Part shown: positions 2,903 through 8,196 of the stretch, one piece after another
How the letters are laid out: the number at the start of each line of letters is the position of its first letter
Position numbering within the stretch: position 1 is the first letter of the stretch
Virus record (IMG/VR): IMGVR_UViG_2529292736_000006
Source of the DNA: a virus
Taxonomy: Duplodnaviria > Heunggongvirae > Uroviricota > Caudoviricetes
Length of the DNA stretch: 9,636 bases
Reading direction: 5' to 3' (one strand)
Program-made: the position numbers and the translations under genes
Notes under the pieces: generated by a model
The model's input: the letters and a program-made list of their open reading frames with translations, nothing else
The model's database searches: none
What the model was told of the DNA's origin: nothing

Positions 2903-2930
2903 CATAAAACAAAACTCGCCGTAGCGAGTT
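2903..2930 (-). terminator. Candidate rho-independent terminator downstream of the 142-aa accessory gene
   Basis: On the minus-strand transcript: 7-bp stem (AACTCGC/GCGAGTT, plus-strand 2913-2919 and 2924-2930), 4-nt loop, then UUUUGUUUUAU. It sits 45 bp after the 142-aa ORF stop and just upstream of the orf55 ribosome-binding site. Confidence 0.5.
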
Positions 2931-2974
2931 CAGATATAATTTCCACCAAAGGCAGTAGTTGCTGATGCTAAGAA

Positions 2975-3403
2975 TTATTCAATATCTATTCCTGTAATAT
3001 CTTTTATCTTTTTCCTTGCAAAGCCTTTTGCTAGTGATTTTGAAACACTTATTAGTGTACTAATTCCCTCATCCTTAAAGTTTGTTTTTATAGTTTGCCA
3101 GACCTCCTTTTGACGCAAGTCAGCAATAAAATCATGCCCTCTTGCTGTCAACCTCAGTGGTACTTCGATCCAACTATATCCAACACCTTCCCCTAACTCG
3201 TTGGACATTATATGACCGAACCCAGGTTTTCCATCAACCCTGACTATTAATTCGTAGTCGCATAATAATCGCATATGGAAAATAAAATTTTGGTCATATC
3301 TATTAAAGCCATTATCCTCTAGTTCACTAAGCATCGTGTCAGGGCCATGAGTTTTTTCGAATGCGATAAGTAGATCTTTTAGATATTGCTGGTCTAATTT
3401 CAT
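2975..3403 (-). CDS. Hypothetical 142-aa protein, AT-rich accessory gene (moron); function unknown
   Basis: ORF with ATG at 3403 and TAA at 2975-2977, with a strong GGAGG ribosome-binding site 5 nt upstream. Composition is visibly AT-rich compared with the flanking lambda-like genes. I do not recall it in lambda at this position. A tentative resemblance to small phage DUF2513-type proteins (a ...LTARGHDFIADLRQKEVW... motif) is from memory only. Confidence 0.8.
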   Translation of the reverse strand: MKLDQQYLKDLLIAFEKTHGPDTMLSELEDNGFNRYDQNFIFHMRLLCDYELIVRVDGKPGFGHIMSNELGEGVGYSWIEVPLRLTARGHDFIADLRQKEVWQTIKTNFKDEGISTLISVSKSLAKGFARKKIKDITGIDIE

Positions 3404-4063: not shown

Positions 4064-4678
4064 TTATCTAAAAGTCTTTCCACTTTTAACGTCTAGGTAT
4101 ATTCTGTTCGACAACGTCATTCCTCCGCAATATGTGAAATAGATGTTTTTCCCCTTATTGCTTGATGCCATCCACCCTCCGATTTCCTTAAAGTCGCTTT
4201 CCGTGCAGACCCCTTCGTTTATTAACTTCCTAGCTGCCGAAGAAAACTCTTTTTTGTATATACGGTAGTCATCAGATCCTTTGATTAAAGTATCATCTCC
4301 GCTCGCATTTTCAGCAGGATCTGATGGCCTTTCACTGCTAAGATCACTAAGTTTAACCCATTCTGAAAACTTGCCATTGACGATTCCGTTTTTTCTTGTG
4401 CAGGATTTATTACCTTCTTTAATATATTCGCTTTCCCCTCCCACACATGAGGCTGAATATGGCTCAGTTATACGAACCCATTCACCTTTTTTTTCTAGAA
4501 AATCTACGCCTTCCCTGAAAAATAGTTTCCCAGCCACTCCGCATTTACTTGAAGGGCAGGTATGTCTTTCCGTTCGATCAACAACAACCCAAAGTCTTGA
4601 TTCATTTTTTGCCATTGCCGATGGTATTTGAGATGAGACAATTAACGTAAGCCCTAAAATTAGTATTGATTTTTTCAT
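4064..4678 (-). CDS. Secreted or periplasmic Cys-rich hypothetical protein (204 aa), AT-rich accessory gene (moron); function unknown
   Basis: ORF with ATG at 4678 and TAA at 4064-4066; AAGGA ribosome-binding site 7 nt upstream. The N-terminus MKKSILILGLTLIVSSQIPSAMA-KNE looks like a Sec signal peptide with an AxA cleavage motif and no lipobox Cys. The mature part has 7 Cys and the gene is AT-rich. Confidence 0.85.
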   Translation of the reverse strand: MKKSILILGLTLIVSSQIPSAMAKNESRLWVVVDRTERHTCPSSKCGVAGKLFFREGVDFLEKKGEWVRITEPYSASCVGGESEYIKEGNKSCTRKNGIVNGKFSEWVKLSDLSSERPSDPAENASGDDTLIKGSDDYRIYKKEFSSAARKLINEGVCTESDFKEIGGWMASSNKGKNIYFTYCGGMTLSNRIYLDVKSGKTFR

Positions 4679-4763
4679 TGTAATTTCCTTTTACTTTTTA
4701 CAAAGCGTTTAATCATGGCTGATTATCTTTAAGCGTAGTAACAGCCTTGTGCGAAACATGTTA

Positions 4764-4768: not shown

Positions 4769-4779
4769 TGGATTTGCCC

Positions 4780-5685
4780 CTATATTTCCAGACACCTGTT
4801 ATCACTTAACCCATTACTGGCCTGCTGCCGCAGATATTCCCGTGGCGAGCGATAACCCAGTGCACTATGCGGATGCCATTCGTTATAATGCTCGAACGCC
4901 TCTGCAAGGTTCTTTGCTGCCGTTAACCCGTCTGGTTTAGGCATGATACTGATGTAGTCACGCTTTATCGTTTTCACGAAGCTCTCTGCTATGCCGTTAC
5001 TCTCCGGACTCCGCACCGCCGTGTTCTTCGGTTCAAGCCCCAACATCCGGGCAAACTGCCGTGTTTCATTAGCCCGGTAGCATGAACCATTATCCGTCAG
5101 CCACTCTACTGGAGACGCCGGAAGCTCGTTGCCGAAGCGGCGTTCCACCGCTCCCAGCATTACGTCCTGTACTGTTTCACTGTCGAAGCCGCCCGTAGTG
5201 ACTGCCCAGTGCAGTGCCTCACGGTCACAGCAGTCCAGCGCGAACGTGACTCGCAGTTTTTCTCCGTTATCACAGCGGAACTCGAACCCGTCAGAGCACC
5301 ATCGTTGATTGCTTTCTTTCACGGCCACTTTGCCAGTATGTGCCCGTTTCGATGGCGGTACAGCGGTTTTTCGCTCAAGCAACAGCGCATTCTGGCGCAT
5401 GATCCGGTAAACACGTTTGGCATTGATCGCAGGCATACCATCAAGTTCGGCCTGTCTGCGAAGCAGCGCCCATACCCGACGATAACCATACGTGGGCAGC
5501 TCTCCGATAACATGGTGTATACGGAGAAGCACATCCGTATCATCTGAGTGACGGCTGCGGCGACCATCTTTCCAGTCATCGGTTCGTCTGAGAATTACGT
5601 GCAACTGCGCACGCGACACCCGGAGACAACGGCTGACTAAGCTTACTCCCCATCCCCGGGCAATAAGGGCGCGTGCGCTATCCAC
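4780..5685 (-). CDS. insD: IS2 transposase OrfB (InsD, DDE integrase-like domain; normally expressed as an OrfAB fusion)
   Basis: 301-aa ORF ([34 protein letters not shown]...NRCLEI) recognised as IS2 InsD. It overlaps orfA in the -1 frame. Confidence 0.9.
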
Positions 5686-6008
5686 TTTTTTGCACGCCCG
5701 TATTCAACGGCTTCTTTAAGGAGTTCATTTTCCATCGTTTTTTTGCCGAGCAGGCGCTGGAGTTCTTTAATCTGCTTCATGGCAGCAGCAAGTTCAGAGG
5801 CAGGAACGACCTGCTCTCCTGCGGCCACAGCAGTAAGACTTCCCTCCTGGTATTGCTTGCGCCAGAGAAATAACTGGCTGGCTGCCACACCGTGTTGCCG
5901 GGCAACAAGGGAGACCGTCATTCCCGGTTCAAAACTCTGCTGAACAATAGCGATCTTTTCCTGTGTAGTACGCCGTCTGCGTTTCTCCGGTCCTAAGACA
6001 TCAATCAT
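5643..6008 (-). CDS. insC: IS2 OrfA (InsC, helix-turn-helix regulator, 121 aa)
   Basis: [56 protein letters not shown]... with ATG at 6008. The track's 136-aa version starts at an upstream in-frame ATG inside the inverted repeat and is probably not used. Confidence 0.9.
5685..5691 (-). other. IS2 A6G slippery motif for programmed -1 frameshifting (OrfA to OrfAB)
   Basis: AAAAAAG on the minus strand (plus-strand CTTTTTT at 5685-5691) in the orfA/orfB overlap, where IS3-family elements frameshift. Confidence 0.6.
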
Positions 6009-6099
6009 CTGCTCTCCAATGACTAGTCTAAAAACTAGTATTAAGACTATCACTTATTTAAGTGATATTGGTTGTCTGGAGATTCAGGGGGCCAGTCTA

Positions 6100-6104
6100 C
6101 CAAA
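6100..6104. repeat. IS2 target-site duplication CCAAA (right copy)
   Basis: Identical 5-mer directly abutting the other IS2 terminus. Confidence 0.85.
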
Positions 6105-6312
6105 TCGCCATTTCAGTGTATCCGCAGTTAGGCTGCCACTTCAAGGATTCCTAATTACATGGTACGTAAGCGTAAAATCCCGTTGGTTGTCGGGTAATAA
6201 CTCTGATCAAATCTCCCTTGTCTTTTGCTCTTACGTATGCAGCTCTTGTGTATTCAACCCAGGCCTCCAGTTCAGCAATACGCTTACTTCCATCCGAGAT
6301 AACACCTTCTAC
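6100..6312 (-). other. Protein-like in-frame continuation of the Ea22-like ORF beyond its TGA (disrupted C-terminal part)
   Basis: Same frame as the 83-aa ORF. After TGA (6313-6315) it reads VEGVISDGSKRIAELEAWVEYTRAAYVRAKDKGDLIRVITRQPTGFYAYVPCN, then TAG (6151-6153), then ESLKWQPNCGYTEMAIW up to the IS2 junction. No ATG or GTG start occurs in this stretch and the other two frames are closed. Confidence 0.45.
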
Positions 6313-6564
6313 TCACGCTGCTCGTTGAGTTTTGATTTTTGCTGTCTCCAGCTCAACACGCAGTTTCCTCACCGTTAGCGCAATATCCTCGTTCTCCTGG
6401 TCGCGGCGTTTGATGTACTGCTGGTTTCTTTCCCGTTCATCCAGCAGTGTCAGCACAATCGATGGTGTTACCAGCTCATGGAAAAGGTCCGCGTCAAATC
6501 CCCAGTTGTCATGCATTGCCTGCTCTGCCGCTTCACGCAGTGCCTGAGAGTGAATTACGCTCAC
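6313..6564 (-). CDS. Ea22-like N-terminal segment (83 aa as a conventional ORF; coiled-coil-like)
   Basis: ORF MSVIHSQALREAAEQAMHDNWGFDADLFHELVTPSIVLTLLDERERNQQYIKRRDQENEDIALTVRKLRVELETAKIKTQRAA. Its start overlaps the upstream TraR-like gene stop by 4 nt (ATGA). Its position relative to exo, orf60a and orf63 matches where I recall lambda ea22 starting. Confidence 0.6.
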   Translation of the reverse strand: MSVIHSQALREAAEQAMHDNWGFDADLFHELVTPSIVLTLLDERERNQQYIKRRDQENEDIALTVRKLRVELETAKIKTQRAA

Positions 6565-6782
6565 TTCGAACCTCTCTGTTTACTGATAAGTTCCAGATCC
6601 TCCTGGCAACTTGCACAAGTCCGACAACCCTGAACGGCCAGGCGTCTTCGTTCATCTATCGGATCGCCACACTCACAACAATGAGTGGCAGATATAGCCT
6701 GGTGGTTCAGGCGGCGCATTTTTATTGCTGTGTTGCGCTGTAATTCTTCAATTTCTGATGCTGAATCAATGATGTCTGCCAT
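6561..6782 (-). CDS. TraR/DksA-family C4 zinc-finger protein (73 aa)
   Basis: MADIIDSASEIEELQRNTAIKMRRLNHQAISATHCCECGDPIDERRRLAVQGCRTCASCQEDLELISKQRGSK. A CxxC...(17)...CxxC motif with a preceding helical segment is typical of phage and plasmid TraR-like proteins. Confidence 0.8.
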   Translation of the reverse strand: MADIIDSASEIEELQRNTAIKMRRLNHQAISATHCCECGDPIDERRRLAVQGCRTCASCQEDLELISKQRGSK

Positions 6783-6880: not shown

Positions 6881-7162
6881 TCACCGTTCCTTAAAAACGC
6901 CGTTTAACATGCCGATTGCTAGGCTTAAATGAGTCGGTGTGAATCCCATCAGCGTTACCGTTTCGCGGTGCTTCTTCAGTACGCTACGGCAAATGTCATC
7001 GACGTTTTTATCCGGAAACTGCTGTCTGGCTTTTTTGATTTCAGAATTAGCCTGACGGGCAATGCTGCGAAGGGCGTTTTCCTGCTGAGGTGTCACTGAA
7101 CAAGCCCCATGTCGGCAAGCATAAGCACACAGAATATGAAGCCCGCTGCCAGAAAAATGCAT
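6881..7162 (-). CDS. Hypothetical 93-aa protein in the orf61 / ea22-orf63 interval
   Basis: ORF MHFSGSGLHILCAYACRHGACSVTPQQENALRSIARQANSEIKKARQQFPDKNVDDICRSVLKKHRETVTLMGFTPTHLSLAIGMLNGVFKER. It is the only long frame here. Its relationship to lambda orf61 could not be settled from memory. Confidence 0.55.
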   Translation of the reverse strand: MHFSGSGLHILCAYACRHGACSVTPQQENALRSIARQANSEIKKARQQFPDKNVDDICRSVLKKHRETVTLMGFTPTHLSLAIGMLNGVFKER

Positions 7163-7172
7163 TCAGTGGTTG

Positions 7173-7364
7173 TCATACCTGGTCTCTCTCATCTGCTTCT
7201 GCTTTCGCCACCATCATTTCCAGTTTTTGTGAAAGGGATGTGGCTAACGTATGAAATTCTTCGTCTGTTTCTACTGGTATTGGCACAAACCTGATTCCAA
7301 TTTGAGCAAGGCTATGTGCCATCTCGATACTCGTTCTTAACTCAACAGGAGATGCTTTGTGCAT
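7173..7364 (-). CDS. orf63: Lambda orf63-like protein (63 aa)
   Basis: [63 protein letters not shown]. Sequence and position (overlapping orf60a and lying upstream of exo) match my recollection of lambda orf63. Confidence 0.8.
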   Translation of the reverse strand: MHKASPVELRTSIEMAHSLAQIGIRFVPIPVETDEEFHTLATSLSQKLEMMVAKAEADERDQV

Positions 7365-7519
7365 ACAGCCCCTCGTTTATTATTTATCTCCTCAGCCAGC
7401 CGCTGTGCTTTCAGTGGATTTCGGATAACAGAAAGGCCGGGAAATACCCAGCCTCGCTTTGTAACGGAGTAGACGAAAGTGATTGCGCCTACCCGGATAT
7501 TATCGTGAGGATGCGTCAT
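7337..7519 (-). CDS. orf60a: Lambda orf60a-like protein (60 aa)
   Basis: [60 protein letters not shown]. The ATG at 7519 overlaps the exo stop as ATGA, suggesting translational coupling. The track's 62-aa version uses an ATG two codons upstream. Confidence 0.8.
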
Positions 7520-8196
7520 CGCCATTGCTCCCCAAATACAAAACCAATTTCAGCCAGTGCCTCGTCCATTTTTTCGATGAACTCCGGCACCATCTCGTCA
7601 AAACTCGCCATGTACTTTTCATCCCGCTCAACCACGACATAATGCAGTCCTTCACGCTTCATACGCGGGTCATAGTTGGCAAAGTACCAGGCATCTTTAC
7701 GTGTCACCCACATGCTGTACTGCACCTGGGCCATGTAAGCCGACTTTATGGCCTCGAAACCACCGAGCCGGAACTTCATGAAATCCCGGGAGGTAAACGG
7801 GCATTTCAGCTCAAGGCCATTGCCGTCACTGCATAAACCATCGGGAGAGCAGGCGGTGCGCATACTTTCGTCGCGATAGATGATCGGGGATTCAGTAACA
7901 TTCACGCCGGAAGTGAATTCAAACAGGGTTCTGGCGTCGTTCTCGTACTGTTTTCCCCAGGCCAGCGCCTTAGCATTAACTTCCGGAGCCACACCGGTGC
8001 AAACCTCAGCCAGCAGGGTGTGGAAGTAGGACATTTTCATGTCAGGCCACTTCTTTCCTGAGCGGGGCTTTGCTATCACGTTGTGAACTTCTGAAGCGGT
8101 GATGACGCCGAGCCGTAATTTGTGCCATGCATCATCCCCCTGTTCGACAGCTCTCACGTCGATCCCGGTACGCTGCAGGATAATGTCCGGTGTCAT
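7516..8196 (-). CDS. exo: Lambda exonuclease (Red alpha, 226 aa)
   Basis: 226-aa [65 protein letters not shown]...GFVFGEQWR, recognised as lambda Exo. The start overlaps the bet stop by 4 nt. Confidence 0.97.

Follow-up and report, generated by a model that had tools for sequence, protein, structure and literature searches.

The closest described relative of the gene analyzed here is ea22 of phage lambda, a pro-lysogenic gene of the exo-xis region that lies just after a TraR/DksA-like ORF and encodes a protein of 182 aa (Ea22, Pfam family PF13935). Ea22 proteins are built of three parts, an N-terminal segment, a coiled coil and a C-terminal domain (PMC10834534), and the family is mosaic in that a common N-terminus and coiled coil are joined to unrelated C-terminal domains (PMC7093339, PMC10834534); the Ea22 proteins that have been studied have a C-terminal K/R-G-E tripeptide in common (PMC7093339). 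The stretch of viral DNA under study (9,636 nt in all, referred to below as the window) carries an Ea22-like ORF in the identical slot, which in its first ~300 nt is ~96% identical to lambda ea22 at the DNA level and has the same N-terminal segment and coiled coil. The analysis presented below leads to the reading, held with a probability of about 0.9, that the region at 6100–6564 represents an Ea22-family pseudogene, truncated and mosaic, that belongs to the exo-xis region of a remnant lambda-type prophage.

The Ea22-like ORF and its genomic setting

When the minus strand is translated from the GTG at 6564 toward 6100, a single frame comprises 83 codons, a TGA (6315-6313), 53 codons, a TAG (6153-6151), 17 codons and a further TAG (6101-6099). 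An earlier note made from the sequence had described two in-frame stops within one common frame, and translation confirms this description, as it does the statement that the alternative frames are closed: across 6564-6100 the other two minus-strand frames contain 10 and 12 internal stops, vs 2 in the Ea22 frame. The openness of the first ~137 codons thus exceeds chance, and homology backs the same view. Upstream is a gene encoding a TraR/DksA-type C4 zinc-finger protein of 73 aa (6561–6782, minus strand; Pfam PF01258, 35.8 bits), whose TGA stop shares bases with the GTG at which the Ea22-like ORF starts, in the sequence GTGA (6564-6561). The overlap had been recognized earlier but given as ATGA; lambda ea22 has the identical GTG start and the same GTGA overlap with its own TraR/DksA-like ORF, and the order of TraR-like gene followed by Ea22-like ORF is common to lambda, phage Chlobot, E. 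coli ATCC 8739 and the window.

The truncated ORF itself (6313–6564, minus strand; 83 aa) is assigned to the family by alignment with lambda ea22 and by the PF13935 Ead_Ea22 profile (72.1 bits, the cut-off being 27, over profile positions 2-110 of 139), and its position in the exo-xis region below the TraR/DksA-like ORF is that expected of a family member. It is made up of 76 native codons, corresponding to the N-terminal segment and most of the coiled coil, followed by 7 frameshifted codons (IKTQRAA); with a stop after these 76+7 codons, the intact three-part build of N-terminal segment, full coiled coil and C-terminal domain is absent. The 83-aa ORF is thus a pseudogene or fragment of the Ead/Ea22-like family and not a functional member, and its predicted product is most likely, at best, an 83-aa coiled-coil fragment. 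The earlier proposal that an Ea22-family gene has been inactivated in place is supported by the profile match, the lambda ea22 alignment and the intact alleles described below. An Ea22-like pseudogene of this kind is already known, in that public annotation flags the frameshift: RefSeq/PGAP records ECOLC_RS15460 of ATCC 8739 and DTO54_RS17820 of E. coli AMSHJX01 as pseudogenes ('ead/Ea22-like family protein'; frameshifted, incomplete, missing C-terminus).

The window contains ybhC, int, xis, several small ORFs, what remains of ea22, orf63/orf60a-like genes, exo, bet and gam. Its nearest relative is the lambda-type prophage remnant in E. coli ATCC 8739 (bioA ... ybhC), with which it is collinear at 99.3-99.8% identity. 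The prophage remnant adjoins ybhC, at the lambda attachment site, and the Ea22 pseudogene lies in its exo-xis region; identity to window positions 6100-6564 is 100% for the ATCC 8739 pseudogene and 99.1% for that of AMSHJX01, both of which lie in this prophage remnant at that site. Phage Chlobot (PP925838), which is free-living, has 98% identity over the window stretch and carries the TGA allele. Of 5426 complete E. coli genomes, at least 118 also contain this allele in exact or near-exact form. TGA is present in all complete genomes checked (20 listed 100%-identical records, AMSHJX01 and Chlobot), and a pattern scan of contigs in which any codon was allowed at the stop position gave TGA in 47/47 (32 from IMG/VR and 15 from metagenomes), these contigs having at least four or five different N-terminal backgrounds.

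Two indels, a native stop and a mosaic C-terminal part

The origin of the first stop was analyzed by alignment with lambda ea22, Chlobot, AMSHJX01, the allele of the SZQ1 plasmid pOHT76-1_1 and the metagenomic contig L011, which carries an intact allele. Relative to lambda ea22, the SZQ1 plasmid allele and L011 there are exactly two indels, +1 A and −4 (TTAC), one on either side of the TGA. The insertion has produced an A5 run (6336–6340, minus strand) that is A4 in lambda, SZQ1 and L011, and the junction of the 4-nt deletion is at 6310/6309, within the sequence TGAGTAG (6309–6315, minus strand) that begins with the TGA of the shifted frame. The ancestral reading GCA AAA TCA AAA CTC AAC GAG CAG CGT GAG TAT TAC GAA GGT (...AKSKLNEQREYYEG...) becomes, with the extra A, GCA AAA ATC AAA ACT CAA CGA GCA GCG TGA; the +1 A alone therefore yields the TGA after seven wrong residues. 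The −4 deletion sits one codon past the TGA and, alone and in the original frame, would give GAG-TAG (6311-6309), such that either indel by itself cuts the protein within three codons of one place. The 53 downstream codons are in the frame of the upstream ORF only because +1 and −4 sum to −3. Whereas the earlier note had supposed point nonsense mutations without frameshifts, the first stop arises from the +1 A frameshift; the alignment to lambda ea22 that it proposed as a check supports a homologous start and homology to ~6266, with two indels flanking the first stop.

In the mechanism that emerges, the insertion in the A run (6340-6336) shifts the frame, so that ribosomes reach the TGA after 7 wrong codons, and the 4-nt deletion one codon beyond brings the net change to −3. 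Translation would still be coupled to the TraR-like gene via the GTGA overlap and would give an 83-aa fragment without the C-terminal domain, the 53 codons past the TGA staying untranslated. Against this reading, the two indels lie 30 nt apart and restore the frame, as in a frameshift that has been compensated, and this would ordinarily point to selection to keep the full-length product.

Intact alleles were sought in the protein database with the conceptually repaired protein as query. Those found (P0001 and P0003, each 141 aa; P0004, 183 aa; P0005, 161 aa) differ in their N-terminal modules, and all run through the 53-codon stretch with a common C-terminal part, ...AKSKLNEQREYYEGVISDGSKRIAELEAWVEY...YAYVPCN, followed by a stop equivalent to TAG 6153-6151; the consensus of this part is ...AKSKLNEQREYYEGVISDGSKRIAELEAWVEYTRAAYVRAKDKG(D/E)LIRVIT(R/C)QPTG(F/Y)YAYVPCN, at which the protein ends. 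P0002 too ends in ...YAYVPCN, and the equivalent TAG is also present in Chlobot, SZQ1, AMSHJX01 and contigs L009, L010 and L011. The DNA of P0001 is L011, a contig of 4.8 kb that has an in-frame reading across the gene and the TAG at the native stop position, and whose neighbors are as in the window, with the TraR-like gene upstream and a 204-aa ORF downstream. The TAG (6151–6153, minus strand) is accordingly assigned as the native stop of this Ea22 variant, at which P0001-P0005 all end; the alignments indicate that the gene always ended there and that no mutation is involved. The second stop had been taken earlier for a nonsense mutation, a view that is contradicted by intact homologues of 141-183 aa ending at the same position.

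The 53-codon stretch (6154–6312, minus strand) is covered end to end by intact homologues and is a genuine part of the gene that is now untranslated. It had been suggested that the case for an interrupted gene would fall if homologues ended together with the 83-aa ORF and the DNA downstream had no protein homologues; for the 53-codon part this does not apply, as homologues continue past 83 aa, and the 17-codon part has plasmid homology instead. The stretch is itself composite and consists of the conserved Ea22 linker VEGVISDGSKRIAELE (to ~6265), a 28-residue EaA-like fragment (from 6261) and a short unique tail ...TGFYAYVPCN. Similarity to lambda ea22 ends at about 6266 (...IAELE), and the next 28 residues (WVEYTRAAYVRAKDKGDLIRVI...) find matches, by tblastn/blastn and PHROG, only to an interior segment of longer phage proteins, namely Cyrano CYRAN_97 (221 aa), the PhiR41_1 'EaA protein' (285 aa), phrog_21749 and phrog_20174. 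The match to phrog_21749 is confined to profile positions 138-165 of 208, in the middle of EaA-like proteins. These matches indicate that the gene was already chimeric before it was damaged; the ancestral gene of ~141 aa consisted of the Ea22 N-terminal segment and coiled coil, joined by past recombination to the 28-residue EaA-like fragment. The K/R-G-E ending is absent from this variant, whose intact alleles finish ...YAYVPCN.

None of the 5426 complete E. coli genomes yielded an intact allele, their best full-length matches reaching 95.9% identity with a −3 length difference, and no undeleted allele with this C-terminus is present in IMG/VR. The SZQ1 plasmid allele is without both indels but has GAG→TAG and TGG→TAG changes, which place stops at eight to ten codons inside the variable tail, and two further substitutions close by; because these stops differ from the window-type indels, one part of the gene has been inactivated on two occasions, each in its own way. 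Within the TGA lineage there are 10 haplotypes among 43 alleles, and only 5 sites are variable in the 159 nt downstream of the stop. The changes at these 5 sites are 2 synonymous and 3 non-synonymous when counted by site, or 1 and 4 when counted by haplotype (CGC→AGC, Arg→Ser), numbers too small to indicate relaxed selection.

DNA beyond the native stop

The 17-codon stretch (ESLKWQPNCGYTEMAIW) that follows the native stop had also been considered coding-like in the earlier note. A run of 17 stop-free codons has a probability by chance of p≈0.44, calculated as (61/64)^17, and the stretch corresponds to the RNAI promoter region of a ColE1-type origin fossil. The statement that all three stretches look protein-like thus holds for the 83-aa and 53-codon parts, which have homologues, but not for the 17-codon part, which is intergenic DNA derived from a ColE1-type plasmid. 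A weak blastn match to an unverified phage record (TH38) falls in a bona fide ColE1-type RNAI (RF00106, 80 bits). Comparison of the uninterrupted Chlobot sequence with plasmids gives 890 matching plasmids, mostly small and mobilizable, the best of the 890 extending over ~117 nt at 80-81% identity (E=5e-20). Alignment with the Rfam-verified RNAI loci of pKKo003_7 and of a Klebsiella ColRNAI plasmid shows that homology spans the RNAI promoter, the 5' end, stem-loop I (with an identical loop, CGCACA) and apical stem-loop II, and stops inside stem-loop II, short of stem-loop III and the terminator. In the window the fossil is present as two halves, both on the minus strand: the RNAI promoter with the first RNAI bases at 6100–6160, and RNAI stem-loop I with the top of stem-loop II at 4708–4763. 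This homology indicates that the DNA past the native TAG is non-coding and is a captured piece of a ColE1-type plasmid, comprising the RNAI promoter and the 5' two-thirds of RNAI.

Between the two halves lies an IS2-like insertion sequence of the IS3 family (4769–6099, 1331 bp; orfA/orfB on the minus strand), which is recognized by its ends (TAGACTGGCC... and ...GGCAAATCCA), by a 5-bp target duplication, TTTGG, at 6104-6100 and 4768-4764, and by E. coli matches of up to 98% identity annotated as IS3-like element IS2 family transposase. Its length of ~1.3 kb, terminal inverted repeats, orfA/orfB and 5-bp duplication are those of an IS2 element. Position 6100, the lower bound of the stretch studied, is the IS2 junction, and the last TAG (6101-6099) is built from the first IS2 bases at a point where uninterrupted relatives read TGG TAA. 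The element is located at approximately the RNAI 5' end, splitting the plasmid-derived segment and parting its promoter from the gene of the 204-aa protein. Chlobot, ATCC 8739 and 49 other loci are without IS2 at this site, and the IS2 junction was found in no complete E. coli genome of the collection. In ATCC 8739 an IS1 is present in place of IS2, 27 nt further downstream and with a 10-nt loss, and AMSHJX01 is without an insertion sequence there.

The RNAI-like promoter consists of a −35 hexamer TTGAAG (6144-6139), an 18-nt spacer and a −10 hexamer TACACT (6120-6115). The promoter scanner passed over it, as the two hexamers match 8/12 consensus positions with the threshold set at 9; because this match is below threshold, the call is based on homology to the characterised RNAI promoter. 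Downstream is the 204-aa ORF (4064–4678, minus strand), which has an N-terminal signal peptide and a PHROG match to phrog_8310 and is followed by a terminator-like hairpin; a tblastn search of the phage collection for relatives of its protein matched only Chlobot. The distance of 118 nt from the RNAI-like promoter to the RBS of this ORF is exactly kept in 49/53 loci. Because the hexamers are intact and the 118-nt spacing is kept, the RNAI-like piece most likely serves as promoter and leader of the 204-aa secreted-protein gene in the intact relatives.

A functional RNAI was considered and rejected. With the Rfam RF00106 model (gathering threshold 47 bits; true plasmid RNAIs score 78-80 bits), neither the window nor Chlobot, AMSHJX01 or SZQ1 gives a match at E≤1, and L009 and L011 give none even at E≤10. 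Stem-loop III and the terminator are missing, and the fold of the fossil is no better than that of shuffled sequences (z −0.5 to −1.0, vs −6 for a true RNAI). It is quite improbable that the ColE1 RNAI-derived segment is a working module in these lambdoid phages and not merely a fossil; if it were, the prophage would express the secreted-protein gene constitutively from the intact RNAI promoter, the stem-loop I leader could base-pair with RNAII, the primer of ColE1-type plasmids in the same cell, and upset the control of their copy number, and the independent IS2 and IS1 insertions in the 118-nt spacer would reflect selection to silence the module. In the window itself such a module is already broken by IS2. 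A literature search for RNAI-like sequences in lambdoid prophages yielded nothing relevant.

Alternative readings and comparison with known systems

The allele could in principle be a functional one in which the UGA is leaky or recoded (for example as Trp), giving a 137-aa protein with the patch IKTQRAA-X-V, a reading that would account for the restoring of the frame by the −4 deletion. Such readthrough, which we consider very unlikely, is in keeping with a net −3 indel pair that preserves the downstream frame and with a TGA allele that is far commoner than the intact alleles. The 53 downstream codons are also nearly invariant among carriers; however, this near-invariance is attributable to recent common ancestry, as shown by the small number of haplotypes and by the fact that the upstream codons are equally invariant. 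The 69 nt from the UGA onward form no hairpin (−10.4 kcal/mol, while shuffles average −13.7; z=+1.4), the window contains no Rfam recoding element at E≤1, and the G that follows the UGA makes the context comparatively good for termination in E. coli. The SZQ1 sister allele has moreover gained true stops in the downstream part. One protein record, P0080, has 'Trp' at this position, but the underlying DNA reads TGA, which cannot be translated there by the standard code, and the residue is an artefact of gene calling. Recoding as raised in the earlier note is thus disfavored by the lack of structure after the UGA, the closed state of the other frames, the decay of the sister allele by other stops and the artefactual nature of the P0080 residue; nor does anything in the sequence appear to argue for low-level natural leakiness of the UGA. 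Programmed frameshifting was rejected separately, in that a +1 shift at the A run ends at TAG 6311-6309 and the remaining frame has 12 stops. One sequence, the 887-nt metagenome contig L009 (encoding P0002), has TTA in place of TGA and an intact 137-aa ORF, a point against the favored reading, and bears both on readthrough, for which it speaks, and on the possibility that an indel allele already compensated and carrying a sense codon later mutated to TGA, so that the first stop would after all be a point nonsense mutation. L009 reads GCG TTA GTA in the double-indel background, and TGA and TTA differ by a single base. Against this, the ancestral CAG CGT GAG/GAA (lambda, SZQ1, L011) gives GCG TGA directly upon the +1 insertion, and TTA cannot predate the indels, because in the ancestral frame it would be an in-frame TAG (CGT TAG). 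TTA is also a singleton, vs TGA in every contig of the pattern scan and every complete genome checked, and the other supposed nonsense codon is the native stop. We therefore regard an origin by point mutation as extremely unlikely.

It is barely credible that the true gene lies on the opposite strand, in an ORF on the plus strand at 6019-6378 that was called by the Chlobot annotators (CDS0046, 94 aa) and whose frame has one stop only over 6100-6564, the openness of the Ea22 frame past the TGA then being incidental. This ORF starts in plasmid-derived non-coding DNA, runs into IS2 in the window, and is broken in the indel-free SZQ1 and L011 sequences ~18 codons before the stop it has in Chlobot, while the sense frame has protein homologues over its whole length; antisense 'shadow' ORFs opposite coding frames are in any case common. 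The chance that the stops reflect a sequencing or assembly error of this record is practically negligible: a +1 change in an A5 homopolymer is at a typical error site, but the identical allele occurs in the complete genomes counted above, which come from many laboratories and platforms, in the 47 independent contigs and in the genome of an isolated phage.

The truncated mosaic Ea22-family pseudogene that is favored here is a textbook example of the decay and mosaicism of lambdoid prophages in their non-essential exo-xis region, and as such matters little for wider biology. It does offer two cautions: what looks like an in-frame stop may trace back to a pair of neighboring indels and not to a point mutation or recoding, and a brief stop-free stretch behind a gene may consist of non-coding DNA that has been captured. 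Mildly interesting is the presence of a ColE1 RNAI promoter and leader fragment before a secreted-protein gene in a widespread prophage lineage, where it has been struck by two different insertion sequences. A true ColE1 RNAI has the 3' half of stem-loop II, stem-loop III and a terminator; the fossil is without these and without RNAII or an origin, and, unlike ColE1 RNAI, it leads into an RBS and a protein gene and in the window is split by IS2. Compared with lambda ea22, the ORF of the window is cut at codon 83 by a frameshift, and the intact form of this variant would also differ from the lambda protein, having in place of a folded C-terminal domain like lambda's a tail of 37 residues, of which 28 come from another protein.

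A plasmid-origin fossil upstream of the secreted-protein ORF

The DNA between the ea22 remnant and the 204-aa secreted-protein ORF includes ~117 nt that are the fossil of a plasmid origin of the ColE1 type (minus strand; window 6160-6100 plus 4763-4708, corresponding to 3141-3257 in phage Chlobot). In it are the RNAI promoter, with TTGAAG and TACACT separated by 18 nt, stem-loop I of RNAI and the upper part of stem-loop II; a terminator is absent, and the fossil does not pass the Rfam RNAI model. Of 53 related loci, 49 have precisely 118 nt between promoter and RBS, and the fossil is probably a captured promoter plus leader.

The 204-aa ORF itself (window 4064-4678, minus strand), a member of phrog_8310, begins with a Sec-type signal peptide (MKKSILILGLTLIVSSQIPSAMA, followed by KNE). 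Its Pfam matches are limited to weak SH3_3 and lipoprotein-signal hits, both under the cut-off. A terminator-like hairpin follows the ORF at window ~3995-3965, and ORF and hairpin together are a moron-like unit. Within the phage collection, the ORF is present in Chlobot only.

Among prophage remnants that are close relatives, this spacer of 118 nt has been struck by two different insertion sequences. In the window it is IS2 (4769-6099), flanked by a duplication of TTTGG; in the E. coli ATCC 8739 remnant it is IS1 (~6986-7753 of that locus), inserted 27 nt further on than IS2 with loss of 10 nt and without duplication. The IS2 junction had no match among 5426 complete E. coli genomes.

Alleles of the ea22 remnant and its opposite strand

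Only one allele with the double-indel background was found in which a sense codon, TTA for Leu, replaces the TGA: that of an 887-nt ENA metagenome scaffold (L009, 56-469), whose ORF is intact and encodes a protein of 137 aa (P0002). The TTA may have arisen by reversion or as a neutral change, or it may be an error of assembly. The database protein P0080, encoded at 191-739 of ENA contig k141_214511 (L010), reads Trp at two positions that are TGA in the DNA; its translation evidently used a code in which TGA is Trp, an artefact that could wrongly pass for evidence of readthrough.

A sister allele without the indels (1743-2160 of locus L007) contains two point stops, GAG to TAG and TGG to TAG, with substitutions clustered within eight codons. 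It belongs to a lambda-like exo-xis region on pOHT76-1_1, a 43-kb circular 'plasmid' of E. coli SZQ1; this record looks like a phage genome deposited as a plasmid.

Antisense to the remnant, a 94-aa ORF is annotated in Chlobot (2923-3207, minus strand; window 6019-6378, plus strand). It resembles a shadow ORF. Its start lies inside plasmid-derived DNA, and in the alleles without the indels (SZQ1 and the metagenome contig L011) its frame is interrupted ~18 codons before the position where it stops in Chlobot.

Anomalous database records

Near-identical lambda ea22 sequence occurs in records assigned to non-enteric hosts, for example MW057783.1 ('Campylobacter phage CJLB-4') and OQ055246.1 ('Xanthomonas phage NR08'), and is probably lambda DNA contamination or mislabelling; protein names are similarly odd, with Ea22-like proteins tagged Streptococcus, Staphylococcus and Piscirickettsia. 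Separately, a complete ColE1-type RNAI gene (80 bits) lies near one end of a Kuravirus record (MT446410.1, 'UNVERIFIED' Escherichia virus TH38; 1554-1655 of locus L008), which suggests that the assembly includes sequence from a plasmid or vector.
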